In this document: positions 6,991-64,000 of the stretch, in pieces
Layout: every line of letters starts with the position of its first letter
How positions within the stretch are numbered: the stretch's first letter is position 1
Assembly (NCBI RefSeq): GCF_964204645.1
Contig: NC_134034.1
Location: forward strand, 9,188,962-9,252,961
Direction: 5' to 3'
From: Tubulanus polymorphus
Taxonomy: Eukaryota; Animalia; Nemertea
DNA length: 64,000 bases
Notes under the pieces: model-generated
Database searches by the model: none
The model's input: only the letters and a program-made list of their open reading frames with translations
What the model was told of the DNA's origin: nothing
Program-made: the position numbers and the translations under genes

Positions 6991-7038
6991 CCCACGCTTC
7001 AAATTTTAAATTATACGATCAAATTTATTATGAAACTA

Positions 7039-37789: not shown

Positions 37790-38189
37790 TTTCGCTTAAT
37801 ATTAATTTTATTTGAAAATATGTATGAAATCTAAAAAGTGATAACATCAATGGTAAACTTGGTTTGTTTAAATGATCATTCCAACTAATTCCATATCCTG
37901 TTGTTGCGCAATAAACAGAAAAATTTAATTGGTTCTGCCAATACTTCATATTAGATTTTAATAACCATTGTTTTGCCTCATTTAAATTTTTGAAATTAAT
38001 TGTATACACATAAAATTTATTCTCCATCTTTACATGAAAATTATTACTTTCAGTAACATAAATATATAAATCAATTAATGAATTTAAAACTTCATTTCTA
38101 TATGTAATATCTTTATTAAAATCTATTGCTGGAATATTATATTTAATTGATTTATTATATTGGAAAGCTTTTGGAAAACTATCTGCCAT
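37790..38189 (-). pseudogene. Conserved PLV hypothetical protein, 3'-truncated (homolog of 58555-59889)
   Basis: YWQNQLNFSVYCATTGYGISW; abuts the EnSpm segment at ~37780. Confidence 0.6.
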
Positions 38190-38205
38190 TTATATAATTA
38201 AAAAA

Positions 38206-38640
38206 TTAATAATTTATTAATTCTTTTAATAATTTATCTTGTTCTTCAACTGTTATATGACCATTTAAACTTATTATATAATCTAGTGTATTCTTTAATT
38301 TATTAATTTCTTTTATATTAGTTTTAATTTTTTCTTTATTACTTTTTATATTTAATTTTGAACTTATACCAGTTAAAACACTTGGACTTAATCCTAATAC
38401 ACCAATTGATATAGCTAAAGGTGTTAATGGACTGAATATTGCTAGAAATGTTATTACAGAACTAATTGTAACCGAACCACTAATAATAAGATAATATATA
38501 ATTTTACTTTTTAAATATTTATTCTTTTTTATCTTTAAGTCACTTTCAAATTCTAATATTTGTTTTTCTAAATTTATTTTTAATTTAGTTTTATTTATAT
38601 CATGAGGAATAATATCAATACTATCAACTTTATCTTCCAT
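38206..38640 (-). CDS. PLV small two-TM coiled-coil protein
   Basis: 144-aa intact ORF with two hydrophobic segments; conserved second copy at 59906-60340. Confidence 0.7.
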   Translation of the reverse strand: MEDKVDSIDIIPHDINKTKLKINLEKQILEFESDLKIKKNKYLKSKIIYYLIISGSVTISSVITFLAIFSPLTPLAISIGVLGLSPSVLTGISSKLNIKSNKEKIKTNIKEINKLKNTLDYIISLNGHITVEEQDKLLKELINY

Positions 38641-38655
38641 TTATTTAGAAAAAAA

Positions 38656-39065
38656 TTACTAATTAGTAAATTTATATGCTACAAATATAACGATAACAGT
38701 TCCACCTAAAATCCATATTATTTCATATTTCTGTTGTTCTTTACTTGGGGTATAATAATCTGATAATTTAGGTTTGAATAGATGTAATTTTTCTTTATTT
38801 GTTACTGCGTTATATAAACTGATTGAAAATCTCTATGTGAAATCATCTGATCATATAATTCCTTGTTAATATAATCCATATCGTTTTGTCTCTTTTCTCA
38901 ATATTCTTCAGCTGCTTTATTGTATTTCTCTAATGCTAAGTTATGTCTTTTTTGTTCTGTTAATGATCCATTTTTATCAATATGCTTAAATAAATAACCA
39001 CCACCAGTAAATGCTAAAGCGTTAGCAATTGCCGATCCTATAATAGTTATAACTGCAGAAGCCAT
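38656..39065 (-). pseudogene. PLV membrane protein (homolog of 60357-60782), frameshifted
   Basis: MASAVITIIGSAIANALAFTGGGYLF..EQKRHNLALEKY; short deletion near 38820. Confidence 0.7.
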
Positions 39066-39089
39066 TTATTTAGTAAAATAATTATGTAT

Positions 39090-39311
39090 TTATATGGGAG
39101 GAATATATTTTTGTTTTTCCAAATAATCAATAGTTAAATTAGATAAAGTAACTGCTAATGTTAATTTTAAAATATCATTGATATCAAATCTATCAACATT
39201 AACACTTCCCATTTTGAATACTTTTTTTAATACCATTGAATAACCAACAGTTCCAACTGATAATAATGCTCCACTATATAAACCAGTTATTATCCACTTA
39301 TTATCACTCAT
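39090..39311 (-). CDS. PLV small hydrophobic protein (73 aa)
   Basis: TAAATG start; homolog at 60807-61028. Confidence 0.65.
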   Translation of the reverse strand: MSDNKWIITGLYSGALLSVGTVGYSMVLKKVFKMGSVNVDRFDINDILKLTLAVTLSNLTIDYLEKQKYIPPI

Positions 39312-39344
39312 TTATTAATCAAAAAAATTACTATCTTCAAAATA

Positions 39345-39671
39345 TTTAGTTATCTTAGTGATGATTAATTCAACATTTATTTCATTACTACTTTTATGAT
39401 TATCATATATTTCGGTTAATATGTTTTTAATATCATCTATGATAAAATCTTCATCTTATTCATAAAATCTTAAAGATTCTCTAATTAAATTAGTAATCTT
39501 TTCTACATTTAAAGTTTCTTTATATATTGTTGTTTCATACTCAAATGTTGTTTCATTAGAAAATGCAATATTTTTGATATGTGTAATTACATCATTAATG
39601 TTAAATTTCATTTCTTTCTCACGTTTAAAATCAAATCCAAAACATATACTCGGTCCAACAGTTATATTCAT
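39345..39671 (-). pseudogene. PLV hypothetical protein (homolog of 61059-61370), internal stop
   Basis: MNITVGPSICFGFDFK matches the second copy; stop at 39456. Confidence 0.55.
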
Positions 39672-39687
39672 TTATATAGTGAAAAGA

Positions 39688-40446
39688 TTACTCTTTACAT
39701 CTTATAACTAATTCATAAATTACAGGAAAGTTATTCAAATCAATTAAATAACCATTATGATTTTTTATTTCTAATTTAAAATTATTGAAATGTGGAATAC
39801 AAGGTTTAAAATCACATTCAGTTAAATTATAATTTATTTGCGTTCCAAATTGTTTAACATTTTTTAATGGTAAAATATTTAATATACTAGAATTACAAAT
39901 TGTATCTTTAGTTGCTTCAAATGTTTTTGTTGGGTCAATTAAATTGCAATAAATATAAAAATGTGTAAAAGGTATTAAGTTTGATCTACCTTCTGAGTAT
40001 GCTGTAACAATATCTGGGTTAATTCCTAACAGTTTACCTAAAGGTTTTCTTACTGTGAATTTAAATTGTTCGTCATTAGCTAACCTAATCTTTATTTTAT
40101 TAGAACTATCACTTTTTAAAATTGTAATACTAAATCCGGAATCACTTCCTAATTTAGCTCGAGCTTTTCTATTAATTTCTTGTGCTAATGTATCTAAATT
40201 ATATAATCCTGGTTTTAAATATATAAAAAACCATTTATTCCTTTTTTTGTAAAAGATTGAAAAAATTAAATGTTCTAGACTTTTATCCGATATATTGTAA
40301 AATGAGTTACATAAACTTATATTTACTAATTTTAAATCAACACAATTATTTAATTCTCTATCTAATTGAACTATTAAATTATGTGATTTATAATTTGTAA
40401 GTTTTCTAGAATCAACAAATATTCTGTATTCTTTTAATTCTACCAT
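39688..40446 (-). CDS. Minor capsid protein (penton, single jelly-roll)
   Basis: 252 aa; Polinton/PLV mCP pattern IFVDS...NSFYNI...LKPGLYNLDTL...FYIYCNLID...IKNHNGYLIDLNNFPV. Confidence 0.7.
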   Translation of the reverse strand: MVELKEYRIFVDSRKLTNYKSHNLIVQLDRELNNCVDLKLVNISLCNSFYNISDKSLEHLIFSIFYKKRNKWFFIYLKPGLYNLDTLAQEINRKARAKLGSDSGFSITILKSDSSNKIKIRLANDEQFKFTVRKPLGKLLGINPDIVTAYSEGRSNLIPFTHFYIYCNLIDPTKTFEATKDTICNSSILNILPLKNVKQFGTQINYNLTECDFKPCIPHFNNFKLEIKNHNGYLIDLNNFPVIYELVIRCKE

Positions 40447-41285
40447 TATTTATAACATAAAAAAATTACCGCTCATCACTAAAAATAAATTTTAATAAAA
40501 TTTTTCCTTAATAAATGGATGAGAAGATACCATGCGAAATTTTTGGTGAACTTCTAAGAAAAAGTAATATGGCTCGACATATGAAAAAACATGATGAAAA
40601 TTATAAACCCCCTAAACTAAACTGTCCAAAATGTAATAAATTATTCTCAAGAAATTATGTTAAAAAACATTCAGAGAAGTGTAAAATTAATGGCGCAACA
40701 GCTAATGTTGATAGTAACGAAAGTAATAGTAATTCTGTTGAAGTTGAACCTGAAGTTATTTGGAAAAGACCTTTCTTATTCTATGATAAGGATAATATAA
40801 AAGATCATTTCTGTGAGCCTTGTCGAATAAAATATAGCCCTGAAAATATAGAAGATTGGGAGAATCATCAATTTCGTAAAGTACATATACAGAGCTGCCA
40901 ACCTTGATTTCATCTTTGGCTGAACACATGTCCAGATTTATCAGTATTTTCAAAAATTTTCCAGTAGTCCCAAATTTTCAAAACAGAAAACGCTTAAAAA
41001 GTCAGTATTAAGTTATCAAAAGTCTGTATTACAATTAACACATAGAACGTTATTCATAATAGAACAAATTCTATTAAAATATATTAAAATATATTGAAAT
41101 ACTTCAGTAACAGAAATATTATTGATTGTCGAGATCACAATTAACTAAAATTAACAGTCACAGTAGAAAAACACAACAAAACTTTTGTTTGTTGATAAAC
41201 TAAAATAAAACATAACATAACATAGCAGTAACAATAATAATACTAAATTTATGATCAGGCACTAGATAATGCCAGTGTGTTGCGA

Positions 41286-42167
41286 TTAATGATTTTTTAA
41301 TGACAACCTGGTTGTAGATTTGCATTTTCTTAATAAAGTTTCACTATGATTATTCGAATGGCATATCCCACCACGTGACTTCAAAAGCATCAGTGCCTCC
41401 AGAGTATCTGGAGCAAGGCAAGAACGAAAATCTGTCTTATTTTTACGGACGGTACTGAACACGCGTTCACAGCAGGCATTGGCCACTGGTATCAGAAGAA
41501 TTATCATCATGAGTCTGGGAAGCACATTAAATCTAAAAAAGATGACAGACAAGATGCTCATTGATAAGAATCTAATATATATGACATAAAGTGTTACACT
41601 AGACATGAATGAGCCTATGTACCTTTGAGATCCAGTACAATCAATAAGCTGTGCCATCAGTTTCCACTGTTCTTCGGCTGGTCTATGAACAGGACCAGAG
41701 CTATAATCTTTAGCTATTTGACTGTCAGGAAACATTTTGCGAGCCAATTCCCCGACATGGTCAGCTGCACTAATAGGAATATTGTGCTCGACTAAGAACT
41801 CACAGAACATCGTTTCAGCACGAATAACAGATAGGTCTTCTTTTTTCACGAAAAATGATGTTATATTCTTAGATTTATTCAAAACTTTGGCAGCTTCCGA
41901 ATGTTTACTTGTGGCCATGTGTCTATGGATATCGTCGACGCCACCGTAGGCTACCGTAAAATCGCTTTTACAGTAGGCGCAGAAGGCATGATGTTTGGAC
42001 TTACTACTCTTTTCAATACACGGATATTTCATTGAATATTCCTCCCGAAACTTTTGCATTCTACGCTTTTTCTTTGCAGGGCAAGCCGCTTTAGTATTCA
42101 GCTCCGAAACATCAGAATCAGACGATTCTGAATCAGATCCTACCGAAATCAAAAGGCCGGTCGCCAT
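41286..42167 (-). pseudogene. hAT transposase deletion derivative (BED-like finger fused in frame to the dimerisation domain)
   Basis: AFCAYCKSDF...DIHRH...KH; FLVEHNIP; catalytic core missing; LLIPVANACCERVFS..KNKTDFRSCL. Confidence 0.8.
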
Positions 42168-42185
42168 TTTGTCAACAAACTTCTG

Positions 42186-42241
42186 ACACCGTACTAGTGC
42201 GCCATCTTCACTTCAATGAAGGTGGCGCACTAGTACGGTGT
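42186..42241. other. 25-bp-stem hairpin just upstream of the hAT transposase ATG
   Basis: ACACCGTACTAGTGCGCCATCTTCA-CTTCAA-TGAAGGTGGCGCACTAGTACGGTGT, one mismatch. Confidence 0.85.
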
Positions 42242-42280
42242 AAGAGAAATTAGATAAGGACCGGCGGGGTCCTCGGGGAT

Positions 42281-42980
42281 GGGTCTGACTATTTCAGATG
42301 GCTGGGAGTCACCTTCATTTCGGTCAACGAATTATACATTTAGACTTCACCTACGATGTAACGTAGCACAATACACTGGGTTCGAATCCCGTAAATCGTT
42401 CCAGGAACTCGGTCCCTCAGCGCAATTCGTTCAAACAAAATTCCCATTTTTTGTCTGAATGAAATTCAATTTAATGACCAATAGAAACTTATTTCCAATC
42501 AGGAGATCTGCTAACCAAAAGGAAATTCCTTAAAAAGTCCTCGTAAATTACATTCAACTTGAACAAAAATATAAACTAAAACCATATATATGTACCATAC
42601 AAACTTTTTTATTTCACAAATTTCTAAATTTGAATAAACACCACATTGTTCTGATATAAATCAAATTACACAATTTTAAAATTTGAATATACATGTACAT
42701 AGTTCTGATTGACTTGGAAATTTGAAAATTGGATTACAACACGGCCTTACAGCATTTTAATAGTGCATACGGTTCAGATGATGTTAGGTGACATTGAGTA
42801 CAATATGGTGAATATTACAAGTCGTTGATATACAAATATGGTGATTGACAAACATTTCTCTACAACGATCGGGTTACTAAGATATAAAAAATTATTATGT
42901 GTAAAAAGTTAAAAAGCAAACCAAAATGGCCAAAGTGTGCAGAAACCTGTTGCCGAAGTGTGCAGAAAATAAATGTTATC

Positions 42981-43040
<60 letters not shown>

Positions 43041-44052
43041 GGTATATATATGCCAATGAGTCAACACATTTACAATGGACAAAAATTTTCCACAACTTTA
43101 AATGTTCCTATATTAAAATAATTAGCATATTTTTTATGTAACTAATCGACACCACATTTGTGCTGTGTAATGATCCCAATAACCATTATCAAAAATACAT
43201 CATATACATGTTATATGGAGTATTAGACAAAAACATTAAGTCAAAAAGCAGTAAGTGAAAGAGAAAAAAGCATGTTGCACCCCCCAACAAAAATATGTTT
43301 TGGTATTAAGTCCATTCAAGTCAAGCATTTATAGAATTAAAAATATAACCAGAAAATTATAGTTTAAGTAGGCTAGGCCAAGCAAAACTGGCAGCTTGTC
43401 AAAGCGGCATCATAGGGGGGGGGGGGGGGCGATGAAGCATCTGCCCCCCATAATTTTGGGTACGACCTAATTTTTTGTAATGATCACCATTAGGCTATAT
43501 ATTGTGATTTCGCTGAAATTAAATGAAGTGGTTTGCCCCAATAATACCCGTAATTCCGGTGACGCGCGCCTGCATGTATTAGCCTATAGACATACGATCA
43601 TATCGAAAAACAGTACAGGAAGGCTTATTCGTACTGGTGCATATATGCTGTTTGCGAGGCCATATGTCAACACGACAAGTGTTTTCTTAACACAACACTC
43701 ATCAGCTTATAAGTTATTATACTGTACTATAGGCCTAGATAGATAGAACAGAAAACAATTAACAAGACTAGAGTCAGAGAGACATTAAAATTACGGTAAA
43801 AGATAAACATACCACCACAATATTCAGAGAAATTTTCCTTCCACCAGACGCACCACTTAGTTCTTGACTTCAATTCGTGTTCATTGATGAGTGATGACAC
43901 CGCCATAAAATCATGACAATCATGACGACAATAAGACGGATCGGAAGATGAAGTTGAATCGTCCGCCATTTTAGGTACGTAGGTAAAGTCTAAATGTATA
44001 ATTTGCAGACCGAAATGAAGGTGACTCCCAGCCATCTGAAATAGTCAGACCC
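42281..44052. mobile_element. Non-autonomous Mutator-like (MULE) element
   Basis: 45-bp perfect TIR GGGTCTGACTATTTCAGATGGCTGGGAGTC... extending imperfectly to ~75 bp; 9-bp TSD CTCGGGGAT. Confidence 0.88.
42983..43038. repeat. (TA)n microsatellite
   Basis: About 28 TA units. Confidence 0.98.
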
Positions 44053-45260
44053 CTCGGGGATGAACAAATGAAGATCGTCGATCATCGGGCCAAACTCCAC
44101 CCTCAACTTACAAGTTTGATTGAGAGAAAATGAGGAAAAACGAAGTAAATTGCTTTAAAAAGACATTTTGTCAATCCGTAATATATCAATTTTTTCCGTA
44201 CTCTCTGGTGAAAATATCCGTAATGATTTTTCAAAAAACGGAACCCCGTATTTTGTCACGATTTTCCGGAACTGTTACGGAAAAATCAGAACGGTTGGCA
44301 GCTCTGCATATAGATAAAATTTCTAATTAATTTGAAACTGAATTCAATGAAAGAAAAAATAGTTTATTAGAAAAAATAAAATATGAGAAAACGTTACCAG
44401 ATAATAAAGAAACAGTTGAAAAGTTAGAAAAACAATATAATGAATTAACAAGAAAAACATATTATTGTAAATATTGTAAATTGATTATTACAACAAGTAA
44501 TTCAAATCTACATAATAGAACAATAAAACATAAAGAAAACGTAAGAAAATACCAGGAGCTTAATGAAGATTTATTACCAATAAATTATAAACGAAAATGT
44601 CCACAATGTAGTTATGCGACCTTAAGGCAAGAAGGTACTGTGTTATTTTGTAATGAATGTGGATGGCAAAAGAATTTATGGGGTGAAGAAAAAACGAGAT
44701 TTTCTCATAGAACCAAAATTAAATAATCTTGATGAAATTTTTAAAATATTTTCTATAGAAGATCATACACCAGAATATAAGCAATGGCTTGAAAAAATGA
44801 AAATAATAGAAAATGAAAATGGTGAAATAACTAAAAAAGATATTATAAAAACAATTATTCCATCAACATTTAACACAAAACAAAAGAAAATGTATTTATA
44901 TTTATTATTTAACGATTATTATGAAAAACCGAAATTAACAGAAGAAGATATGGAAAAGATAAAAAAAATATTCAAACAAATATTAATGTATCATTTGGAA
45001 AATAGAATAACAGATTCAATTAATTATGAATTCTTTTTAAATAAGATTGTAAATTATTTAAACATAGATATTATAATTCCATTTGACGAATTAACAAACA
45101 AAAAGAAACAAAGAGAGCGAGATGAAATGTGGTACAAGATAGAACTATATTTAAATGAGAAAAATGAAATGGAAGAACCTAAACAAATTATACAAGAACA
45201 ATTAAATGAAAATGAAGAAGCCAATAGTGATTTCGAGTATGATGATATTGATTTTATGTT

Positions 45261-48200
45261 TTAATGGCCATAAGGTAATGTTTTTATACCATCATCTAAA
45301 ATATGCCTTTTATCATCAAATGGATTTAAACTAGTTTTTTCAACTTCATTAATGTACATCTCGTGATCTTCTGATCTTAAACAATTCATTTTATGTTTCA
45401 TTACAATTGATTTATATAAACACTTGAAATTCTATATGTTTATCAACCACATGTTTTGTTATTCCTTTTAACTTTTTAGCTTCATGATCTTTTGTTCTAT
45501 AACTATACATTTTACTTCTTATCCCAACAAATTCAATCATTTCATCACCCCCTAATTCATCTTTAAATTAACCAGGAATGTTTTTATTATCATTGCTAAA
45601 TAGTTCATGATCTTTGGGATAATTGCTAAAATCAAAATGATGTTTTAAAGTTTTTAAGTCTTTTGTTAATTGGAATTAATGGGAACCCAGAATTGAATGT
45701 TCCATCATCTGTTGATAAATCATAAACATAGTCAGTTGGGTTATATATTTCAAATAAATCTTTAACTTCTTCTGTTAACTCATTTTCTACATGGCTTAAA
45801 TTAAAGCAATTTGGTTTAGATTTAATCAATCCAATATTCATATTAATCCTAATGAACTGCATAATATATTCAATCCTGATATAGCAACTTTTCCTTTTTG
45901 AGCTAAAGATATTGTTTTGCGGTTTTTGAAACTTTTTGAACCATCTGCAGCATAGAATCCAATGAAGAACCATTTTCTTAAATTATTTTTTGCATTTAAT
46001 ACATAATCTGGAACTATCTTTTCTTTTGTTGAAGTATTACTTTTAACTATTGCATGAATATAGAATTCATCATTATATTTTATAGCAAAATCTTTAGGAT
46101 TATTTACAAGTATTCTATAAACTGCTGTTGATTTCATAACATCCATGATTTTAAATGTTTTATTTGGATAAACTTCTTCACAGAATTTCTTAATTCTTTC
46201 TAATAATTTTAAGTCTTGATTGCATAAATACCAACAATATTGAGTGCGATTAACATAATTATACACACCTGCTGAACCATCACCCATGAAAAATCCTTTG
46301 ATAAAATATTCTTTTTCTTCTAATGTTTCGGGTTCTATATTATAAATATTATCAATAATTTCATCGAATGACATATGATTCATTCTTTGGAAAAATCTTT
46401 TATGTAATAATTCATCTCCAATTTCTATATCAGTTGGTTTTATTTCATCGCCATTTCGTTTAATTAAACTATGATCTTCTGTAACATCTACAAATCCAAA
46501 TTTAGTTCTTACTCTATAGATTTTCTTATTTGTTTTATGTCTAATAATATTCTTTAATTTTTTCCATCCATTTCTTGTCCAAACATCCATTAAACCATTT
46601 ATTTGTATTAATTCTTTTTCACCATATGAAATATAACATTCATTTTGTTTTGGATTTATTTCTGAAATTCTTCTTATCAATATTTTATCATTACATTTTT
46701 ATAATATTGGGGTGTCAGCTGTTACAGAATCAAAATATAATATTTCAATATGCTTTTCCCCAAAAAGTGGTTGTAAAACATTATAATAAAAATCATACAT
46801 TAATAATTTTGATACTTCTAAAACAGTTGAACCAATGAATATAGGTTTATCAAATTTCATTGACGTTCTTTTTAATTTAACTGCTGTTAAATAATCTTCA
46901 AATCTTTTATTTCCTAAATGTCTAGGACTTGATTGTAAATGTCTTAATCTTTCAGAATTATTTACTAATTCAATATCATTTCTATTTCTAATATTTTCAC
47001 ATGTTTTACCATGAAAACTATTGTTCATTAATTTGAAGAAATCTTTTTCAAAATCTGTTTTTGATATGGTTCTCTGTTGAGTATTGAAATCTTTTCTTTA
47101 ATTTCATTCCTTGTTTTAGATAAAATTTTAACATTCTATAATGAACAATATAATTGTATTTATTATTTTGAGTAAGTATTAATTTTTCTGTAAAAACATG
47201 ATCTTTCGGTTTTATTTTCTTCTGGTATTCACTTAAATAACTATCATCTACAGTTAAATGTTCTGGGCAATAAGGTAAGTTTCTTGTTTTAAACTTTATA
47301 TTTTCAGGATATTCTAAATCAACTACAAAGAAATAACCAATTGGTGCTTCATCTTCTAAACTCATAATTGCGCTTTCCCAATCAGTTTTATCACCATTTT
47401 CAACTTCTGTTAATATAAAATTTTTATATGGTTGAGGTTGCATCATTGCCCAACCATATAAATTATTGGCGTCAATATATAATAATTTATATTCATCATT
47501 TGCTTTAAAATATCTCCCATAACACCACTAATTCCACCTCTAATTGATTTTTCAAATAATAAAACCATATCTGGTTCTTTTAATAAATCTAATTCTACAT
47601 TTGTATATTTTAAACCACATTGCCAGGTTAAACCAGGACTAGAGTAGCATTAACAAGGATCAACATTAAAATGATTCAAATTAACTTCTCTAAATTTTTC
47701 AAATATGTCAGCCAATATCATAACATCTGATTTTAAATATAAATCAACTAATTCACCATGATTTTTCATCTTAAAATGGTTCCAAATATTTAATGTTCTA
47801 TTAAACACTTCGTCTTTCACATACTCCTCTTTTAATTGATCATAAAATTGATCTTTTAATAATTCTGTTACATTAAAATCATTGTGTGTTTTATAAAATG
47901 AATAAGGAATTGCGCCTTTATATCTCAATAATTTAAAATCTTGTTCATTTGGATAATAATATCGAGTTATAACAAAATCATTATCAACTAAACTTTTTGA
48001 TAAATTATCTAATGAACTTGCTAGAAATCTATAAGAATCTAAAAATCTAATGCAACCAAATTGAAATGAAATATAATTTTCAGATTTTTTAGCTAATAGT
48101 TTAAAATCATATTTTCTTACATTTACACCACTCATAGCATTATATTCTTCTATTTCTTGATAAATTGCGCCCAATTTCTTTGATAATTGTTTTATAAATA

Positions 48201-50223
48201 GATGGGTATCATAGCCTGATAAATTATGAAATAATATTGGTACGAAATTAACTTTCTTAGCTTGTAAATTGCAATCTTCATGAGCAGCTCCACGATATTT
48301 TGAATTTAAATGATCATGATCTCTAACTTCTTTATCAAATGAATAAAAACGTTTTTCACAATAACAACAATGAGTTGCATAATTAAAATCAATTTCATCT
48401 TCTTTTGTCATAACTATTCTTTTATTTTTGTTTAATAATTTTGCAAAATCACTTTCTAATTCAATCATTTTGTCACAAAAATCATTAACTACATCTTCAC
48501 CTCTAAAAGAAATATATTGACTTTCATATAATTCGGGATAATTTGATTTGATGTAAATTCCATAAGCAGCAGCTCTTTGATGAACTTTTTTAATTGTATT
48601 TATAATTGGCGGGTCTTGTGTTGTGTCTTCATTTAATTCATTTCCTTTATCGATTGATTTTAATAATTGCTTTTTGTTATATATTGCTTTTCTATCTTGA
48701 TCAGTTAATTCTTTATTCAACGATTCAAAGTCCCCATAAATTACAAATGGAACTATATTCTTAAATTTATGATTAGTAAATTTCAATTTATAATCTTTTT
48801 CTGTTGGCATTATTAATTTACAAAAATCTTTATTATCACATAATTCTTTTTGTTTTTATAATGTATTCTCAGTCATAAATTTAGATAAACATTTTCTACA
48901 TAGATAAATTTTATTATGGTGATCACTTTCTGTTCTAAAGAATAAATCAATTTGTTTTAACCACATATAATGTTCATTTTCATCTTTTTTGTAATATAAC
49001 AAATCTATAGCATTTTCATCATCATAATATTCTGTTAAATATAAAGCTTCCAATCTATAATCTTTAATATTTTCACCTTTTGTCTTTGGTAATTGCATTA
49101 ATTCAAATACATTTATTTTTAAATTATTAACTTTTTCTATTTTAGGAATCATTTTTATAGTTACTGGATATTGATCAATTTTATATAATGTTTCATATTT
49201 CCGGTAATTTGTTATTCTAAAACTATGCGTCATATCTTCTGTTGAGTGTAAACAACTAATAATTGACCATAGAAAACATTTATTATCTTCATTTTGAACA
49301 TTTATTACTGCTTTTGTTGTAAATGGTAATTTAATATAAGATGATGCTTTAATATCCTTTTCTGTTGTAAAGTTTGAATCATTTTTAAACATGTTATTAC
49401 TTTTTGGTGTTTTATTCCTTTTTGTATTGTAAACATTTAAATCTAAATATATAATTTCATTCAATGTTAAGCCAGAACCCTCAAAATATCTTTCTTCAAT
49501 ATGACGTTTAAATTCATTAAATATTTTTTCTAACTTCTCTTTTATTTGTGTTTTTGAAATTATTTCTTCAGAGTGTGTTTGAATATTATAATTCATTTTT
49601 TCTTCTGACTTTATAAAACTTACTTTCCCAGAGATACTAATTTTTGGATATTCAACATCTGTTATCAAATCTAGTATTTTTTCTATTATTTCATTAAATT
49701 TACTATAATCTTCTATTGTTGTTCCTTTAAAAAATCTAAATATAATAGCTGCAGGACCAATTTTACTATGTAATGTTTCTAAAATTTCAATTGTATCTTT
49801 TATTTCTAGTGAATCAATATAATTTCTAACATTTTCCATGTAAGGTTTATTTGAAATGGATTTAGTTTTTGAAGTTGGTTTTTTTACTTGTTGAGGTTTA
49901 TCATCAAAATAATCTTTTCCTAAAACATTATTACTCAAATTTTGGCAGTGTTTTTGTGATTCGAGATGTCTATTATAATTCCTTTTTACTATAAATTCAT
50001 TACAAACTTCACATTTTATTTCATCCACATTCATATTTTCTAATCTTTCTTTTCTTTCATTGGAATTTTCTGGAGTTTCAAAATCTATTACATTTTTTAT
50101 ATGATTTGCAGTTTTTTCATGTCGTGATTTTTGGGATTTATCGATGTATTTTTTACAATATTAGCAATAATATTGATTTTTATTAACATTATTGTTTTCT
50201 GGCTGGTGTTCATTCTCCCCCAT
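45261..50223 (-). pseudogene. polB: Protein-primed family B DNA polymerase of Polinton type with N-terminal C2H2 fingers, EndoVII-like HNH insert and an intein
   Basis: NVQNEDNKCFLWS; Exo motifs IYGDFES, FHNLSGYD, YLKSDV; VRDHDH..YRGAAHEDCN; motif A YIDANNLYGWAM; motif B KLMNNSFHGKT; motif C YFD| split by the intein; C-terminus PFDDKR..TLPYGH. Several stops and frameshifts. Confidence 0.92.
45674..46728 (-). mobile_element. LAGLIDADG homing-endonuclease intein in pPolB motif C (pol-c-type site)
   Basis: Block A SVTADTPIL directly after YFD; block B VDVTEDHSLI; blocks C and E FIKGFFMGDGS, FFIGFYAADGS; block F YVYDLSTDDGTF. The terminal Asn and extein TDS are missing in this copy, apparently by a short deletion. 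Confidence 0.88.
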
Positions 50224-50238: not shown

Positions 50239-51590
50239 TTACTTGTGGTGATGAGTGGTGCCTCGACCGCTCGACCTCTGGTATGAAAGCCTACTTTCCC
50301 AATTACTCAAGTGCAGAAGGTAGCAGACACAACCTGCCAGGAAAACGTCTTTATGCTGGTCTCTGACATATTTTATCACACCCCTATACTTTCCGACCAT
50401 GGTGTTAGTGTTATCACAGACTAATGCGGTGCACTTTTTCCAATCGATATTGTGTTTTGATAATTCACGCTGGAGAATTCCAAATATACTCTCTCCTGTA
50501 TGAGAATCATTAAAAACAGGGTTAGCTAAGAGATCTGATTGAATTTCTCCCTGAGAGTCGAGATACCGCACGACAATGGGATAAAATGTCTCATTATTGA
50601 GGGTCGATCCATCTGTAGCAATGACAAAAGGTCCATCAAGATTTTTCACGATGTCAGATTTAACTTCGCTAGCCATAACTTTCATTATCGCGGTTGCCTT
50701 TGTTCTCCCACATTTAAAATCATCAACCACAGATTTTGATGAGAACATTTTTTTGAACAGTTTAGCAGCATGATCAGCAGTGCTGAATGATAGATTATGC
50801 TCAACCAGGAAGTGAACAAACAGAACTTCAGATTTTATAACAGATAGGCCAGGGTTTGTTGTGTTATCAGTTCTAAAAAAATGTGAAATTTCAGAGAGTT
50901 TCGCTTTATCCTTATGTCCTTTTCTTTCACAATGACGTGAAATATCATTTAATCTGCCATGTGAGATCCCTATATCGATTTGACATATCGTACATCTTGT
51001 ATTTACTTAATTTCGATGCTATGAAACATGGATATTGTGCGCTGTACGATTTTTTATACTTCTGTTTCCGATATTTCTTAATCATACGTTTTCTACTGCC
51101 TGTTACCGCAGTATCAGTTTCAAATTCCGACTCCGAAGAAGACGGAGAACCCTCCGAATTTTCCAGATTTGACAAAACGTCGTGAACTTCGTCCGCCATT
51201 TGCAACATTCATGACAATTTGAGCGATGAAAATTACTCGTTGTAACCGAAAATTCGCTAGACTGGTTCCCGGTATTACTCGTTGTAACCGAAAATTCGCT
51301 AGACTGGTTCCCGGCTGTATTGAAACTTCGTGACAATTACTCAAATAAAAACCAAATTTCCCCGTAATAAATGTTAATAAACCATTAAAATACCGATTAT
51401 GTACTGCAAAATTACCTTTATTGACATAATATAAGGAGATTTTTATTGAGGCCGTATTTATTTGCTCATTCGCGTAACATCGGAACGATATCGGAAAAAA
51501 GCGTATTCCATTGCCTGTGCCAGTAACGCCGTATTACCGCGGATAGCACCGGTACGGAATACGGCAAAAACGTTACGGTTGGCAGGTGTG
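50239..51590 (-). mobile_element. 5' part of a hAT transposon (same TIR class as 40890-44306)
   Basis: End CACACCTGCCAACC at 51590 (minus); FLVEHNLSF, KCGRTKATAI, IATDGS, CDNTNTMVG, GCVCYLLHL; 42-bp tandem duplication at ~51232-51314. Confidence 0.8.
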
Positions 51591-51899
51591 TGCAAGGGTA
51601 AATTAATTCAGCATTAGCAAAATCAAAATTGTGTGAAGTCTGAAAAACATGACATGCCTTTAGTTTCCTTAGTTTGTAACAGCTTTTATGTTATATATTA
51701 TCCCTAATTTGTATCACATCTTATTATTATTGAATCACAGTTTATATTTGAATTATCAAGAACTTAAATTTACTAAATTACCAAGTTAGTAATTAGTTAG
51801 TCCAACCAGTACATTTTTATCGGTATAAATGTACTACAGCATTCATGATGGTGCAGATTTGTCTTCATTTACAATGCTTACTAGTATTTACAAATAGTA

Positions 51900-54969: not shown

Positions 54970-55562
54970 TATTGTATGTTCAATAGAATTATCATGTTTA
55001 ATTTTATCTTTAGGTAATACAACAACATTACACTTTTCACATATATTTCTTTCTACATTATCCAAATGTATTTGAGTTAATTTATGCTTTGAAAAATTAC
55101 TACGACTTATATATTTATCACATCACAATATTCATCTTCTTTAACATTATCATTATCAATTTCACTATCATTATTAAATTCGTTTATAGTCGTATTCTTA
55201 TTTTTCTTATCCTGGAGTGAATTAAGATGAGTTGCCCAATTCGTATAACTTTTATACTGTTTACATACGTCACAATATTTTTCATTTGTCTTTTTGGTTT
55301 TGATATCAGGTTCAATCTTATCATCATTCGATGTAGAAGGTATAACATAATCTTCTATTTTAGATTCAATATTATCTTCTATTTTAGGTTCAATATTATC
55401 TCCTATTTTTGTTTCAATATTATTATCTATTTTACTTATTCTATATTTGAATTGATTAAAGTATTCTCCAAAATACTTACTGTATTCATCATAAGGTATT
55501 ATATAATATATATCTGGTATCATTTCACTTGGACTTTGTATTTCATATATTCCTCCTTCCAT
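54970..55562 (-). pseudogene. PLV multi-C2H2 zinc-finger protein
   Basis: YCDVCKQYKSYTNWATHLNS and further C..C..H..H units beyond a frameshift; short IE.KIED repeats. Confidence 0.55.
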
Positions 55563-55594: not shown

Positions 55595-56848
55595 CTAATA
55601 CATAACACTATTCAATTGAGAATTTACAATATTTAATTGCGCGTCAGATATGATGTAAATGTGCATTTTAAAATTTAAGCTTCCTTTTTTCTTTTTCATG
55701 AATAATTATATTCCATCTTTAGTGTTCTCTAGTTTTTTCCCAGAACCATGTAATAAGTTATCCTCTGTTGTTTTAAAATCTAACCATAATGCATATTTAT
55801 TACCGGTATAATAATCAATTTGATTAATATTACAATTTTCAGATGATTTTACTTTTTCATTCATAAAATGTTTTCTAATTTCTGGCCACTGATCTATCAT
55901 TCTCATTCCTTGACAAAATATTTTATTTGCTATGCCTTCGATGGTTATATCTACTTTTGTTATTTCAGGATTATAATACTTATCAACCTGTATTGCACCA
56001 TTAGAATATGTTGCAATGGTAAAAAATATTAATATACCTTTAATAGATCTTCTTGGGAAGTTAATATTCTCATTAATTATTTCATCATGTGCATTAATAG
56101 TTACAGTTTTAAATTTATCAATATAATCATATAATTATGAAAATCCTTGATTGTATTGAGTTTGAATTATACTTGAAATATTTTCATCAGTTACTGTATC
56201 ATATTCTAAACATATATTCGATAATTTATAACCCATATCTTAAATTATATTTGATATTAAAATTTCATTAGCAGGACCAAATGTTATCTCAAATATAATA
56301 TCTTCTTGAATTGTGCATTTATATAAAGGTGCATTTTTATTTATCAATTCAAAATCTAATGGAATTTTATATTTGCTTCCATTAATCTTTTCGATCAAAT
56401 TATCTACGTCATTAGTTACTACTGCATTATTAGCTTCTGATCTTAATTTATTTTGGTTTTCTGATTGGATGCCTTGAAATATCATATTATTTCTATTTCC
56501 TTTTGTTAACCATAAATCTTTGTAATGCATAAATAAATTATAATCATCTAATGAGAAAACTGTTTCTGGCCCAATCTTTATAGTTAATTTTTTAATCAAA
56601 TATCTTCCAACATTATCAACAACATTATTATTATTATTATTATTACCAGTTACATTTATATCAGCTGATAAATAAATACTATTTGGAACATAAAAAGTAT
56701 TTTGTGTTAATCTAGGGATTCTAACATATAAAGTTTCATCAGGATTAATATAAGAAGGGTTATGAGTAATTATATGATGAGATCTTTCTGCTTTAATAGC
56801 GTTAGATATTCTAGGATTCTTAGAAGGATTTACATAACTCCAACTCAT
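55595..56848 (-). pseudogene. Major capsid protein (double jelly-roll), ~415 codons, frameshift near 56240
   Basis: THNPSYINPDETLYVRIPRL, NVGRYLIKKLTIKIG, YKDLW, YKIPLDFELI, KYALWLDF..LHGSG and C-terminal HIYIISDAQLNI; size and context fit a PLV MCP. Confidence 0.65.
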
Positions 56849-56868: not shown

Positions 56869-58562
56869 TTATCTATTTTTCATCATATTCACTAGCCCAA
56901 AAATAATAGCACTTACAACTGTAATTAAAAATAAAATAATATGTTCAGCAGCAAAGTTAAGAATATTCCCAGCAGATTTCAATATAAAACCAACAATTGA
57001 TGCAATAACTCCGGGTAAAGCTGCAGCAGATTTTTTAGATAGTTCCCATAATCATTTTGCTAATTTTTTTAAACCATCCTTAACTTTATCTTCTATAGAA
57101 TTATTATCATTTGGGGGTTTATCCGGTTTATTGGAAGTAGAAGTAGATTTCAATGAATTTGATATAGCTAAACCAATTGTTGTGAAAACCATAGTTACAG
57201 CTGATAGAATTGAAAGAATTGTTATTCCTTCTAATTTATATAATAATTTTTTTCTGTCTTTCAATGATATTTTAGAATCTGTTTTTATTATTAAATCTTT
57301 AAAAATAACTTTTAATTTTTTAATATGATTAAGATCATATGATTTTAATAATATATCTCTTCCTTTTTCCTGAAATTCTTTGTTATATTTTAAATCATCT
57401 ATTTCTTTTTCTAAAGCTAACTTTCTGCATTCATTATCAACTTCATCAATTACTTGAAGATCTCTATTTAATTCTAATTGTTTTAATTCTTCATTTGCAT
57501 TAGTTAATTCTTTTTCTAACATGGTTATTTTAGAAAATCTCATCTTAATATTAGCAATTTCACCAGCTGATTCTTGCATACCTTTAATTTCTCTACGTGC
57601 TTGTTCAGGAAATATGTTCAATTGTTCTTCATTTAAATCAAGTAATCCTTTTTCTAGTAAAGATTGTATTCGATTTATTCCAGTTTCAGCACCGGGTGTA
57701 TCTAAAACACTATTCATCTCTTCTTCAAATGAGTGAACTGTATCTAACATGCTATCAAAATGTTTTACTAATTGTAATTGACTTGAATCATTATCAATTT
57801 GTTGAATATCTCTTCTCGATGTTTCTGGTGTTGAAGATCTTAATATATCTAATCGATCTGCAAAATCTTCATCATTTTCTGGGTCAACAAAAGTAGGTTT
57901 TGGATTTGGATTTTTAAATGGTGAATAATTGTTAATATCAATATTCGGAATCGGTTCATCTTCATTTATTCTATCGAGTGCATATAATTCTGCTAATTTC
58001 TAAACCACCTTTTGAACGTTCAATTGTAGATCTTGCTCGCATTCCAGGTTCATACATATTTTCTTGTCCCATTCTAGATAATTGAATTGTTACAGTTTTC
58101 CTATTTAATTCAAGATTATAATACCATGCATCCTTTTTAAATTCTAAATTATTCATGAAATGTGGATCATCTTTTAAAATTTGCATTACCTTCTGTATCA
58201 ATTTCATCTATTACAACTTTTGGTAATAATTGGTTAACAATTGTTTCTGTTACTCTAGATTTCATTTAATATAATTCCATGGGTTTATCAGGATATTCTT
58301 CTTGTTGTTTTTCTAATAGATTCATTAATTCTTTTCTTTCTGTTATAGTTGTAATTCTACCAATTTTAGGAGCTTCTAAATATTTATTTAATTTTTCAGG
58401 TACCTCGGCATTAATTCCATCATAATCATCATCATTATTTAAATTAGAATTAAATGCTAATCCATCATCAATACTGATACTAGTATCAGGAAAATCAAGT
58501 TGCGGTTCATCACTTATACGGGGGGAGTCACCAACAGTATCCAATGGAATTTCTTTATCCAT
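56869..58562 (-). pseudogene. Large coiled-coil protein with C-terminal membrane segments
   Basis: TAAATG at 58562; ORF pieces 58266-58562, 57971-58207, 57052-57750; tail ALPGVIASIVGFILKSAG..EHIILFLITVVSAIIFGLV. Confidence 0.55.
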
Positions 58563-59889
58563 TTATATAATAGAAAATTAAATATAATATTCCTCCTATT
58601 ACAATTCCTATACAAGTAATAGCTAATTTAGTATTTTCATTTGATTTATTATCATTATCAGTTTTAATTATGTCATGTTGAATAATATCAGTTTTTATAT
58701 TTTCTGATGTATTGTAATCTTTTATTTTAGAATCATTATTTAATTTAATATTCTTAGTTTTAGTTTCTGTTGATTGAATATGTTTTTTATTTTTTTCACC
58801 TTCCATTAATTTTGGAGCAGTGAAAATCTTTTTATTTATATCATACGATCCAAACTTATTATTTATTGTTGCAGTTTTTATCAAATTATTATAACCAATT
58901 ATATTTCCCATTTTTAATACTAAATCATTAGAAATAATTAATAGATTAGGGCCTATACAATAATTTAATCTAATATGTGATTTATCTAAATAATTTTGAT
59001 ATCTTACAATGTTTTCTGGAATCGATCTATTTTTATCATTGTGAATGGAATCTTCAAATAAAACTTTGAATTGTTTCTGCGCGTCAAATGAAGTGTTATC
59101 ATTTCCAACTATTGGTGATCTTGTTTCAACTTGCGCACCTAGAATACATATCAAATGAGGTCTAATTGATTGATTTATTCTTTGTATGCCTGATTTTGTA
59201 AAACCTTCACTATTTTCTAAAATAAAATTAATCCAACCATTATTGTTTTGTTGTTGTATATTATTATAATATTTTGGTAATTCATTCCAATTTAGTGTTC
59301 TTATATCTGTATTTGTCATTATTTTTCCAAATTCGTTAGTATATAATATTCCTAATCCACCCATTGTACCAATTTTTGCTCTAAAATCATTATTTGAATT
59401 AATATTAAATTCATTACATATTTCATAAAACTTCGAAAAATTAATATTATTATTTAGTTCATTAAAACATTTTGAACCTGGTAAAGGACATTCTAATTCA
59501 TCTTATATTAATTTTATTTGAAAATAAGTATGAAATCTAAAAAGTGATAACATCAATGGTAAACTTGGTTTATTTAAATGATCATTCCAACTTATACCAC
59601 ACCCTGTTGTTGCACAATAAACTGCAAAATTTAATTGGTTCTGCCAATATTTCATATTGGATTTAAATAACCATTGTTTTGCCTCATTTAAATTTTTAAA
59701 ATTAATTACGTAAACATTGAATATATTTTCCATCTTTACATTGAAATTATTAGTTTCAGTAACATAAATTTCTTAATTAGTTAATGAATTTAAAACTAAA
59801 TTTGTATATGTAATATTTTTGTTAAAATCTATTGCAGGAATCTTATATTTAATTGATCTATTATATTGGAAAGCTTTTGGAAACCCCAT
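58555..59889 (-). pseudogene. Conserved PLV protein with C-terminal TM anchor
   Basis: TAAATG at 59889; YWQNQLNFAVYCATTGCGISW; RINQSIR..ILGAQ; tail ITCIGIVIGGILYLIFY. Confidence 0.6.
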
Positions 59890-59905
59890 TTATATAATTA
59901 AAAAA

Positions 59906-60340
59906 TTAATTATTTATTAATTCTTTTAATAATTTATCTTGTTCTTCAACTGTTATATTACCATTTAAACTTATTATATAATCAAGTGTATTTTTTAATT
60001 TATTAATTTCTTTTATATTAGTTTTCATTTTTTCTTTATTACTTTTTATATTTAATTTTGAACTTATACCAGTTAAAACACTTGATGATAATCCTAGCAC
60101 CCCAATTGATATAGCTAAAGGTGTTAATGGACTGAATATTGGTAGAAATGTTATTACAGAACTAATTGTAACTGAACCACTGATAATAAAATAATATATA
60201 ATTTTACTTTTAAAATATTTTTTCTTTTTTATCTTTAAGTCACTTTCAAATTCTAATATTTGTTTTTCTAAATATGTTTTTAATTTAGTTTTATTTATAT
60301 CATGAGGAATAATATCAATATTATCAACTTTATCATCCAT
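59906..60340 (-). CDS. PLV small two-TM coiled-coil protein
   Basis: Intact 144 aa; homolog of 38206-38640. Confidence 0.7.
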   Translation of the reverse strand: MDDKVDNIDIIPHDINKTKLKTYLEKQILEFESDLKIKKKKYFKSKIIYYFIISGSVTISSVITFLPIFSPLTPLAISIGVLGLSSSVLTGISSKLNIKSNKEKMKTNIKEINKLKNTLDYIISLNGNITVEEQDKLLKELINN

Positions 60341-60356
60341 TTATTTAGAAAAGAAA

Positions 60357-60782
60357 TTACGAATTAGTAAATTTATATGCTACAAATATAACAATAACTG
60401 TTCCGCCTAAAATCCAAATTATTTCATATTTCTGTTGTTCTTTACTTGGGGTATAATAATCTGATAATTTAGGTTTGTATAGATGTAATTTTTCTTCATT
60501 GGTTACCGCGTTAGATAAACTCATTGCATCATCAACTGATTGAAAATCTCTATGTGAAATCTTCTGATGATATAATTCTTTGTTAATATAATCCATGTAA
60601 TTTTGTCTCTTTTCTCTATATTCTTCTGCTGCTTTATTATATTTTTCTAATGCTAAGTTATGTCTTTTTTGTTCTGATAATGACCCATTTTTATCAATAT
60701 GCTTAAATAAATAACCACCACCAGTAAATGCTAAAGCGTTGACAATTGCCGATCCTATTATAGTTATTATTGCAGATACCAT
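60357..60782 (-). CDS. PLV membrane protein (N- and C-terminal hydrophobic helices, central coiled coil)
   Basis: Intact 141 aa; TAAATG start. Confidence 0.7.
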   Translation of the reverse strand: MVSAIITIIGSAIVNALAFTGGGYLFKHIDKNGSLSEQKRHNLALEKYNKAAEEYREKRQNYMDYINKELYHQKISHRDFQSVDDAMSLSNAVTNEEKLHLYKPKLSDYYTPSKEQQKYEIIWILGGTVIVIFVAYKFTNS

Positions 60783-60806
60783 TTATTTAGTAAAATAATT
60801 ACGCAT

Positions 60807-61028
60807 TTATATAGGAGGAATATATTTTTGTTTTTCCAAATAATCAATAGTTAAATTAGATAAAGTTACTGCTAACGTTAATTTTAAAATATCATTTATA
60901 TCAAATCTATCAACATTAACGCTTCCCATTTTAAATACTTTTTTTAATACCATTGAATAACCAACAGTTCCGACTGATTATAATGCTCCATTATTTAATC
61001 CAGTTATTATCCACTTATTATCACTCAT
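60807..61028 (-). pseudogene. PLV small hydrophobic protein, internal stop
   Basis: Homolog of 39090-39311 with a TTA-to-TAA change near 60980. Confidence 0.6.
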
Positions 61029-61058
61029 TTATTTATCAAAAAAATTACTATCTTCAAA

Positions 61059-61370
61059 TTATTTAGTTATCTTAGTTATAATTATTCCAACATTTATTTC
61101 GTTACTACTTTTATGATTATCATATATTTTAGATAATATATCTTTAATATCATCGATAATTCGATCTTGATTTAATCCATAATATTCTAAAGGCGTTTTA
61201 ATTAAATCAATTACTTTTTCTGTATTATAATTTTCTTTATTAATCATTGATACATTATTAAATGATTTACGTTTAATATCGGTAATTACATCATTTAGTT
61301 TAATTCTCATTTCTTTACCATGTTTAAAATCAAATCCAAAACATATACTCGACCCAACAGTTATATTCAT
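61059..61370 (-). CDS. PLV hypothetical protein (103 aa)
   Basis: TAAATG start; homolog in segment A. Confidence 0.6.
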   Translation of the reverse strand: MNITVGSSICFGFDFKHGKEMRIKLNDVITDIKRKSFNNVSMINKENYNTEKVIDLIKTPLEYYGLNQDRIIDDIKDILSKIYDNHKSSNEINVGIIITKITK

Positions 61371-61386
61371 TTATATAGTAAAAAAA

Positions 61387-62144
61387 TTACTCTCTACACT
61401 TTGTAACTAATTTATATATCACAGGAAAGTTATTCAAATCAATTAAATATCCATTATGATTTCTAATTTCTAATCTAAAATTATCAAATTTAGGAATGCA
61501 TGGTTTGAAATCACATTCTGTTAAATTATAATTTATTTGCGTTCCAAATTCTTTAACCTTCTTCAATGGTAAAATGTTTAATAAACCAGAATCACAAGTT
61601 ATATCTTTAGTTGCTTCGAATGTTTTTGTAGGATCGATTAAATTGCAATAAATATAAAAGTGTGTAAAAGGTATTAAGTTTGGTGTAGCTTCAATATTTG
61701 TTAAAGATTTATCTGGAGGAATTCCTAACAGTTTAGCTATAGGTTTTTTACCATAAATTTATGTTTTTCAATATCAGCCAACATTATCTTTATTTTGTTA
61801 GAACTCTCACTTTTTAAAAATCTAATATTAAACCCGGAATTATTACCTGACTTGTGCCAGGCTTTTCTATTAATTTCTTGTGCCAATGTATCTAAATTAT
61901 ATAACCCTGGTTTTAAATATATATAGGCCCATTCATTTTTATTTTTATTAAAAATTAAAAAGGCTCTATGTTCAACAGTTTTATTCGATATATTGTAAAA
62001 TGAGTTACATAAACTTACATTTACTAATTTTAAATCAACACAATTCTTAAATTCTCTATCTAATTGTACTAGTAAATTATGTGATTTATAATTTGTAAGT
62101 CTTCTTGAATCAAAAAATATTCTATATTCTTTTAATTCTACCAT
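61387..62144 (-). pseudogene. Minor capsid protein, second copy, frameshifted near 61740
   Basis: Homologous to 39688-40446 over its full length. Confidence 0.7.
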
Positions 62145-62161
62145 TTATTTTACATATTTTC

Positions 62162-62516: not shown

Positions 62517-62628
62517 TTATAATACATATTTTAATTAAAATTGATTTTAGAAGTTATGAGATTAATATTTTTAGAGTAATAGGAAATAAGTTGTTAAAGG
62601 TTGAGAGGGATTCATAATATGAATATAA

Positions 62629-63243
62629 TACCCTCTCTGTCTTTATTGACTTTAGTAGTTTTAGTACTTTTAGTACATAAAGAATAAATCTTTATATTAT
62701 CAATACTTTAAAAATAAAATAGAACTACTAAACTCCTAAAGAGATAAAGACATAAATATATATATTACTGTTTCAATAATAATATTTATTCATCTGATGG
62801 ATTTTATATTACTGTTCCAATAATAATATTTATTTATCACACATATTTATTATATATTACTGTTTCAATAATGATTAATATCATAGATTTATCATGTATA
62901 AAAATTATTTATATATTTATGTTTCTAAGTACTAATAAAATAAAGATATATTCTTTATGTACTAAAAGTACTAAAGATAATAAAGACATAACAAACACAC
63001 ATAGATTTATCATATATATTTGATTCAGTAATAAATATCATAGATTTATTTATCTCACAGATTTATTATATATATTTGATTCAGTAATGATAAATCTATA
63101 TGTGTTTGTTGTGACTCTATTGTTTTTATTGTCTTTAGTAGTTTAGTAGTTTTAAACATAATTTTATTCAGTACTGATAAAATAAAGATTCTTTATTCTT
63201 TGTGTACTAAAAGTACTAAAGATAATAAAGACACAAGGAGGTA
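62629..63243. repeat. AT-rich nested inverted-repeat region
   Basis: ~130-bp imperfect inverted arms (62629-62760 vs 63100-63243), a third partial copy at 62930-62990, and inner hairpins. Confidence 0.75.
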
Positions 63244-63496
63244 TTAATTTGAAATAGTTTCTATAATATTTCAAATTTTATTTTATAAATTTATATTCAT
63301 AGGGAAATTGAAGCCTCAGAAGTAATTTTGAACCTTTATTATTCTTTAATTTATTCATATATTCATCATGTAATTCAGTAGGTATAATTTGATTTTCTTC
63401 CAATGTTTGTTGCATAGATTTTCTATCTTTGTTATAAAATAAAACTAAAAATCTCATAATATATTAATATCATCACTCATTTATTTTAGTTAATTT

Positions 63497-64000
63497 TTAT
63501 TCTGATTTATTTTCTGTTTTACCGTGTGGGGGTCGTACGACACCATCTGTTTCGTTCTTACCTGATTTATATTCTATAGGCTTGATATTCGAAAATGTTA
63601 TGACACCAGTAGAAATTAATGTCATAACCGATCCTAATTGGAATGAAGCGTATCCAACCAATTTTTGTAATTCAGTTATAACTAAGTAGTCAATTTTTAA
63701 ATCAACATATAATTCATTTTCATCATCAATTGGTATAATCCGTTTACATAATTTTGAATAACATTTGACAATACCATCAGAAATAGAATCATTTATTCGG
63801 GCCAATCTTGACTCTTCATAAATCTTAAAATATTTTATTACTTTATCTGGTTTCATAGCATCTAGTTCTTGATAAGTTACAATTTTTCCCAAGAATTCTT
63901 TAGATTTCCCTCCGGCAATTAGTAATTCAAGATGGTGCTTACAATATAAGTAGTATTCATAATCAATATTGTTATCAACTTGAGCACAAGTAGTTACAAC
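63497..64000 (-). CDS. PLV hypothetical protein, start probably upstream of the ORF call
   Basis: ORF 63497-63892 with viral-like composition; its stop is followed ~16 nt later by the next TAAATG. Confidence 0.5.
   Translation of the reverse strand, partial: VVTTCAQVDNNIDYEYYLYCKHHLELLIAGGKSKEFLGKIVTYQELDAMKPDKVIKYFKIYEESRLARINDSISDGIVKCYSKLCKRIIPIDDENELYVDLKIDYLVITELQKLVGYASFQLGSVMTLISTGVITFSNIKPIEYKSGKNETDGVVRPPHGKTENKSE

Follow-up and report, generated by a model that had tools for sequence, protein, structure and literature searches.

The late transcription factor VLTF3, encoded by gene A2L in vaccinia virus, is stated in the available part of one study to be undetected outside Nucleocytoviricota (PMC11253617). 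This is contradicted by a paper on stony corals, in which a VLTF3 homolog was described in a subgroup of polintoviruses and gene exchange with giant viruses was proposed (PMC11131425), and by the element described here, a Polinton of the animal Tubulanus polymorphus that carries VLTF3 fused to zinc fingers (ZnF-VLTF3). VLTF or VLTF3 genes have been also annotated in adintoviruses/MELD viruses (PMC8502044) and, among the polinton-like viruses (PLVs), in Zephyrvirus (10.64898/2026.06.19.733378) and in those of Tetraselmis (10.1101/2025.10.09.676808); the polinton passages seen in another report (10.1101/2024.03.23.586382) concern KilA and not VLTF3. An earlier reading of the DNA studied here, the first-pass annotation, took VLTF3 for a hallmark of nucleocytoplasmic large DNA viruses (NCLDVs) and not a standard core gene of Polintons, a view overtaken by its reports in polintoviruses and PLVs (PMC11131425, PMC8502044, 10.64898/2026.06.19.733378). 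A Polinton with VLTF3 is in itself no novelty, and the gene is unsafe as the sole marker of Nucleocytoviricota in animal genomes; what sets the present case apart is the fusion to zinc fingers, a sequence that leans towards poxviruses and the late-type promoters found across the whole element. Our window comprises 64,000 nt of contig NC_134034.1 (coordinates below are window positions) and was compared with contigs L002 and L003, which hold a related Polinton, hereafter called the relative. We give about even chances to the reading that the window holds a broken copy of a stable ZnF-VLTF3/A2 gene belonging to a Polinton family with pox-type late promoters, and that the intact protein would serve the element as an A2-like factor of its own, working alongside the RNA polymerase of a pox-like helper.

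The described systems resemble this locus in different respects. The coral polintoviruses are, like the window element, endogenous in animals and encode a protein-primed DNA polymerase B (pPolB) and, in a subgroup, VLTF3, and they share an rve integrase with the relative, but the accessible text of that paper contains no zinc-finger fusion, lineage assignment or promoter analysis (PMC11131425). Adintoviruses and PLVs have small Polinton-type genomes like this one, some of them also with SLATT genes; the adintovirus protein, however, is called a homolog of mimivirus VLTF3 (PMC8502044), whereas the one in the window scores closer to pox-type A2, has four fingers and is accompanied by pox-type promoters. 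Vaccinia A2L shares with the window gene a C4 zinc ribbon, spaced as in the pox-type proteins that we retrieved, followed by a helical VLTF3 domain; on the other hand, its product has ~224 aa and no extra fingers, is made from an intermediate gene, and acts with A1, G8 and the viral RNA polymerase (PMC11980589, PMC5294985). In mriyaviruses VLTF3 is fixed in small genomes, but these are Nucleocytoviricota with VLTF2 and RuvC, a gene set unlike that of the window element with its pPolB or of the relative with its rve integrase (PMC11253617). PLVs packaged with entomopoxviruses exist; they are small integrating Bamfordvirae that need a large cytoplasmic virus, a dependence that we only infer for the window element, and the accessible text on these highly diverged lineages makes no mention of VLTF, TAAAT or promoters (PMC11296320). 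Endogenous virophages (EMALEs) have been reported to answer their helpers through a promoter match (10.1101/2025.10.09.676808). We found no publication on pox-type promoters in Polintons, in a search for which subscription papers and supplements were largely out of reach, so that priority is unsettled; term searches of one further text (10.64898/2026.10.13.758929) came back empty.

The gene is almost certainly a homolog of VLTF3. Its C-terminal portion, trimmed to 82 aa (44917-45162), matched the Pfam family Pox_VLTF3 (PF04947) with 30.3 bits (E 4.2e-7), being the one of three trims to exceed the curated cut-off of 25 bits, and ZnF-VLTF3 of the relative matched it with 27.5 bits. An AlphaFold2 model of piece 3 of the gene (Table 1; pLDDT 81) found cowpox VLTF3 at rank 1 of a Foldseek search of BFVD (E 8.2e-4, TM 0.75 over 158 columns, in a comparison of predicted with predicted models), and VLTF3 proteins dominate the top ranks. 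The first-pass annotation had proposed a VLTF3/A2 factor and named a Pox_VLTF3 profile or structural match as the way to check it; both were found. All of the 30 matches in the ESM Atlas fell into Pox_VLTF3 clusters (top score 0.95), while a second ESM query, scoring 0.79, is taken as a lead only. A phmmer search of 1.84 billion proteins returned four matches to the gene, among which the only canonical VLTF3, P0004, combines A2L_zn_ribbon with Pox_VLTF3 and is pox-type. Nothing significant was returned by a PDB sequence search or by Foldseek against the PDB, no relative of piece 3 turned up in word-index protein searches, and an alignment-based search returned its own members only; scans of viral contigs with piece 3, the major capsid protein (MCP), pPolB and alignment A1, of a metagenome with alignment A3, and of a phage collection gave no match. 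A single-sequence model of the piece was poor (pLDDT 53) and was not used. With VIA-align the best Z was 5.5, and cyclin-, TFIIB- and Orc6-type chains reached only background values (Z 4.2-5.2), so that we do not claim a cyclin fold. A further divergent VLTF3-like protein related to this family, P0003/P0007 (281 aa), is on a long branch and has no Pox_VLTF3 match.

The three pieces of the window gene align in order to residues 10-230, 237-356 and ~333-515 of the intact protein P0005, at 42-48% identity, and therefore belong to one gene. They contain the zinc fingers, the C4 ribbon and the C-terminal motifs, including DEMWYKI, that had been quoted in the first-pass annotation. The ribbon has the spacing C-x2-C-x13-C-x2-C and the position known from pox-type A2, although A2L_zn_ribbon (PF08792) itself gave no Pfam match. 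Intact natural homologs of 446-707 aa, among them P0001 (with cluster members P0005 and P0006) and P0002, possess the same five zinc sites, i.e. four fingers and the C4 ribbon, followed by VLTF3. The window copy itself is damaged. It had been proposed that removal of the inserted transposon would join the flanks in frame into ~440 codons, but a stop (44328-44330) follows the insertion, the VLTF3 part (44626-45264) is out of frame with the finger and ribbon part (44331-44726), the total length of the joined pieces is not divisible by 3, and finger 1 is without its second cysteine. This damage seems to be confined largely to the window copy: at the stop, 167 of 175 reads of the raw DNA run X6 depart from its sequence, and close to the frame break 118 reads (depth 177-213) have a small length difference. 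In the homologs the open frames are intact at 41-53% identity, and the zinc ligands, the position of the gene and its upstream motif are kept; window and relative have also conserved the stretch ahead of VLTF3, including the VLTF3-side motif of the spacer that precedes the gene (in L002/L003).

By sequence, the closest canonical VLTF3 is indeed of poxvirus type, in agreement with the first-pass annotation. P0004 shares 63% identity with the VLTF3 encoded on an AT-rich viral contig of 232 kb, which we take to be of entomopoxvirus type. The window piece scored 37 bits with a profile of three pox-type sequences and 10 bits with a profile of 112 Megaviricetes-type proteins (from 121 loci, chosen by a motif), while controls reached at most 19 bits for 60 random triplets of the Megaviricetes type and at most 5 bits for 500 shuffles; its identity to helper-type A2 is 36% over 74 aa. 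The profile scores suggest a pox affinity of the fused VLTF3. Capture of the gene from a helper virus, as had been claimed, is on the other hand unproven, because in the tree the fused proteins form their own deep branch outside the three pox-type rows (100/100), about equally distant from pox-type and Megaviricetes-type proteins. The idea that added zinc fingers allow captured VLTF3 to redirect the helper polymerase is not supported either. The C4 ribbon is no addition, as canonical VLTF3 has it as well (PF08792), and U1-type fingers are also present at the N-terminus of pPolB and are thus not specific to the VLTF3 gene; apparently they are a module that the element employs repeatedly.

The promoters provide the second line of evidence. 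Of the 32 gene starts counted in window and relative, 31 read TAAATG, compared with 82 of 1329 other ATGs, and T is found at position -10 in 27 of the 31 starts but only in 27 of the 82 background TAAATGs; 13 starts on L003 are first-ATG calls, and six of the 19 L003 open reading frames (ORFs) were excluded (one open at its 5' end, the second integrase half and four antisense shadows). The start of pPolB at 50223 conforms to the motif. Because T at -3 is a poor context for translation, TAAATG is more likely a transcription signal, and a mere overlap of stop and start codons is an unlikely explanation, as divergently transcribed genes carry the motif too. In late promoters of vaccinia, TAAAT overlaps the start codon, in most cases with G after it, and T stands at -10 (PMC11980589), so that the TAAATG promoters noticed in the first-pass annotation are real and fit the vaccinia late consensus, including T at -10. 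We considered a cascade of two promoter classes, intermediate and late, and rejected it: A content at -19..-15 fails to separate VLTF3 from the structural genes, and T-runs precede pPolB, the integrase and the deoxynucleoside kinase (dNK) as well.

Nearly all genes of the element start at pox-style late promoters, which is why it likely multiplies by means of the transcription machinery of a poxvirus-like helper; we hold such dependence to be somewhat more likely than not. No gene for RNA polymerase and no A1-like or G8-like gene was seen in the sequenced parts of the element and the relative. A pox-type RNA polymerase would read the TAAATG motif, and the element would replicate in the cytoplasmic factory of the helper, in the manner of a virophage. 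Its VLTF3 might then join or replace the A2 of the helper and, with a promoter of this type in front of its own gene, boost transcription of the element by a positive feedback, while the extra fingers would confer general binding to nucleic acids rather than reading of TAAATG. Poxvirus late initiation within AAA yields a 5' poly(A) leader. The more far-reaching proposal, that this animal Polinton family consists of virophages of poxviruses that take over the late transcription complex of the helper with a zinc-finger-fused A2, is tentative and in our opinion rather unlikely; if true, it would point to an undiscovered pox-like virus of the host and offer a natural tool for dissecting the role of A2/VLTF3. 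The locus bears on an open question, the mode of transcription of animal Polintons and their possible reliance on a helper, and the combination of vaccinia-like late promoters on nearly all genes with an own A2-like factor leads to sharply testable predictions.

Several observations weigh against a pox-type factor acting with a pox-like helper. The counts of starts are not independent, as they include duplicates and orthologs, and three of the window starts were chosen partly by the motif; no relative without VLTF3 is among those retrieved, which leaves the dependence between motif and gene without a contrast; and no intermediate promoter class was found in the window and the relative, though A2L of vaccinia is an intermediate gene. 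Pox_VLTF3 was not matched by the 212-aa or the 156-aa piece and the 60-aa trim stayed under the cut-off, ESM recognition was 1844 and thus below the tool guide of 2300, and the alignment behind the AlphaFold2 model contained a pox-type sequence. The tree path amounts to 3.8 to the pox-type proteins and ~3.8 to the nearest Megaviricetes-type row, with no nesting in poxviruses, in an unrooted tree of 20 rows, 13 of them representing the 112, that has no chordopox, asfar or egovirus rows; the window and pox-type proteins also have an AT-driven composition in common (FYMINK 0.53 and 0.54 versus 0.40). A helper already provides A2, and the need for a second one is unexplained. Finally, the DNA data analysed brought to light neither a helper virus nor any transcript, poly(A) leader or binding.

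The strongest of the rival explanations, which we nevertheless consider unlikely, is that of an autonomous nuclear Polinton, in which ZnF-VLTF3 would be the element's own late activator working with host RNA polymerase II and no helper, and TAAATG with its T-run would be a binding or initiation site inherited together with the factor from an ancient NCLDV-like module. It would accommodate the deep and separate branch of VLTF3, the integration of the element in nuclear DNA, with the relative adjoining a RhoGAP exon, and the extra fingers, which would fit DNA binding. Mriyaviruses are not known to encode an RNA polymerase. It also speaks for autonomy that they keep VLTF3 as a core gene in genomes of 35-45 kb (PMC11253617). 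Against autonomy, the match to the vaccinia late consensus extends to T at -10 and to the overlap with ATG, and there is no early class to begin the cycle, because the polymerase, the integrase and VLTF3 carry the same motif. Distinctly less probable is a decoy or dominant-negative role, with VLTF3 of a helper-dependent element mainly sequestering late factors or polymerase of the helper, thereby suppressing the helper and protecting the host; the far divergence from helper-type A2, the extra domains and the reported inhibition of giant viruses by virophage-like PLVs agree with it, but a block of late transcription would hit the element too, as all of its genes use the late-type motif. That VLTF3 is inert or accessory cargo, a remnant no longer active in transcription, is very improbable: in its favour, the window copy is broken three times, reads show arrangements of the minor-capsid-like (mCP-like) gene not adjoining VLTF3 and the structural block is roughly 2-5x deeper in reads than the 5' piece of the gene, but its depth is near that of the 3' end of pPolB, the breaks are mostly private to this copy, and the intact homologs conserve frames, zinc ligands, position and upstream motif.

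The Polinton that houses the gene exists in multiple copies, of which the one in the window is decayed, as follows from read depths of ~165-310 over the VLTF3 gene, close to that of the pPolB 3' end, versus 11-33 within the left part of the inserted hAT transposon. The features of the window are collected in Table 1 (TIR, terminal inverted repeat; MULE, Mutator-like element).

Table 1. Position and character of the features annotated in the window
Feature	Position	Strand	Remarks
Structural gene block, copy A	37799..40451	-	442-aa-type gene cut at left end, SLATT-like gene, three small genes, mCP-like gene
mCP-like gene	39688..40446	-	label from first-pass annotation
Divergent spacer, 68 bp	40447..40514	.	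two back-to-back T-run + TAAAT promoter-like motifs
ZnF-VLTF3 piece 1	40515..40889	+	TAAATG start; fingers 1 (degenerate), 2, 3
hAT-type transposon	40890..44306	.	13-bp TIR; 6-bp target duplication 40884-40889 / 44307-44312
hAT transposase remnant	41286..42167	-	Dimer_Tnp_hAT, E 3e-10
Nested non-autonomous TIR element	42281..44052	.	MULE-like (TIR, 9-bp duplication); reads show it with many other flanks
ZnF-VLTF3 piece 2	44313..44726	+	stop 44328-44330; U1-type finger (zf-U1, E 1e-7); C4 ribbon
ZnF-VLTF3 piece 3	44626..45264	+	other frame; helical VLTF3 domain; Pox_VLTF3 match in 44917-45162; acidic tail
pPolB, broken	45267..50223	-	tail-to-tail with VLTF3; T-run + TAAATG start; N-terminal U1-type finger
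Intein with LAGLIDADG endonuclease in pPolB	45670..46725	-	LAGLIDADG_3 E 4e-7; Intein_splicing E 2.5e-4; at YFD/TDS motif
Extra ORF	55107..55562	-	tandem repeats, finger-like Cys/His motifs, TAAATG start
MCP gene, broken	55610..56848	-	71% to the MCP-like protein of L003; Capsid_N match weak (E 0.003)
Two conserved Polinton genes	56878..59889	-	correspond to the 485-aa and 442-aa types of L003
Structural gene block, copy B	59505..62150	-	mCP-like gene without VLTF3 flank
Inverted-repeat cluster	62625..63236	.	nested repeats between element genes, adjoining cut ATPase gene
A32-type ATPase, C-terminal fragment	63281..63457	-	
206-aa-type gene	up to window end 64000 (within 63281..64000)	-	

The element is cut at ~37796 on the left and extends past the right edge of the window, which holds a fragment of the ATPase and no integrase; the relative carries an rve-Chromo integrase, A32 ATPase, dNK, pPolB, capsid and intact ZnF-VLTF3, and the window genes are mostly 55-90% identical to their counterparts on L002/L003. 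The match of the pPolB gene to DNA_pol_B_2 has E 1.2e-7 and its identity to L002 pPolB is 70-91%, whereas the candidate jelly-roll capsid genes gave only weak Pfam hints (Capsid_N, E 0.003), the mCP-like gene no significant Pfam match, and the extra ORF no counterpart among the mapped L002/L003 proteins. As described in the first-pass annotation, the ATGs of the mCP-like gene and of VLTF3 are divergent and 68 bp apart, and of 16 proteins of the relative mapped on the window 13 matched, ZnF-VLTF3 being the only one to do so on the + strand. The stop of ZnF-VLTF3 abuts that of pPolB in the relative as in the window, so the tail-to-tail pair is a conserved unit; the divergence from mCP is not a lasting arrangement, as the relative has dNK in that place (L003 9287-9928, E 2e-31; divergent and 72 bp from ZnF-VLTF3). 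Copies A and B of the structural block are 87.8% identical, and both arrangements are common in the genome, because 337 reads at 40447 go on into the sequence upstream of copy B; they may represent two subfamilies or a fixed internal duplication. The inverted-repeat cluster possibly corresponds to fused termini or an origin. On L003 the integrase is apparently split into two ORFs (6088-7416). A RhoGAP exon-like stretch on L002 (6418-6507, Pfam E 2e-5) lies ~270 bp past the pPolB start, and the relative is therefore probably integrated in or beside a eukaryotic gene.

Uninterrupted copies of the VLTF3 gene exist, as X6 reads pass straight from one flank of the hAT to the other (142 at 44307 and 132 at 40889). 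The hAT insertion reported in the first-pass annotation stands with its TIRs, target duplication and dimerisation domain, but the duplication comprises 6 bp, unlike the usual 8 bp. Subgroups of hAT with 6 bp may exist. A literature search, in the texts available to it, gave no confirmation of such a 6-bp subgroup. The second TIR element nested in the hAT is likewise real, while its assignment to MULEs is by anatomy, with no transposase match by Pfam in the one inner ORF scanned. Its TIR arms have 78 nt (42278-42355 / 43978-44055), direct repeats flank both sides, and 180 loose read ends place the right end at 44052, which by our reading gives the 9-bp duplication.

The intein is absent from pPolB of the relative. 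Insertions of homing endonucleases into polinton pPolB have been mentioned before (PMC11071308), but an intein in an animal nuclear genome may merit attention. More transposon remains were found at 50240-54900, within the element (weak CxC5/KDZ match), at 10611-14561 (Helitron with PIF1 helicase) and at 34950-36128 (piggyBac-type transposase).

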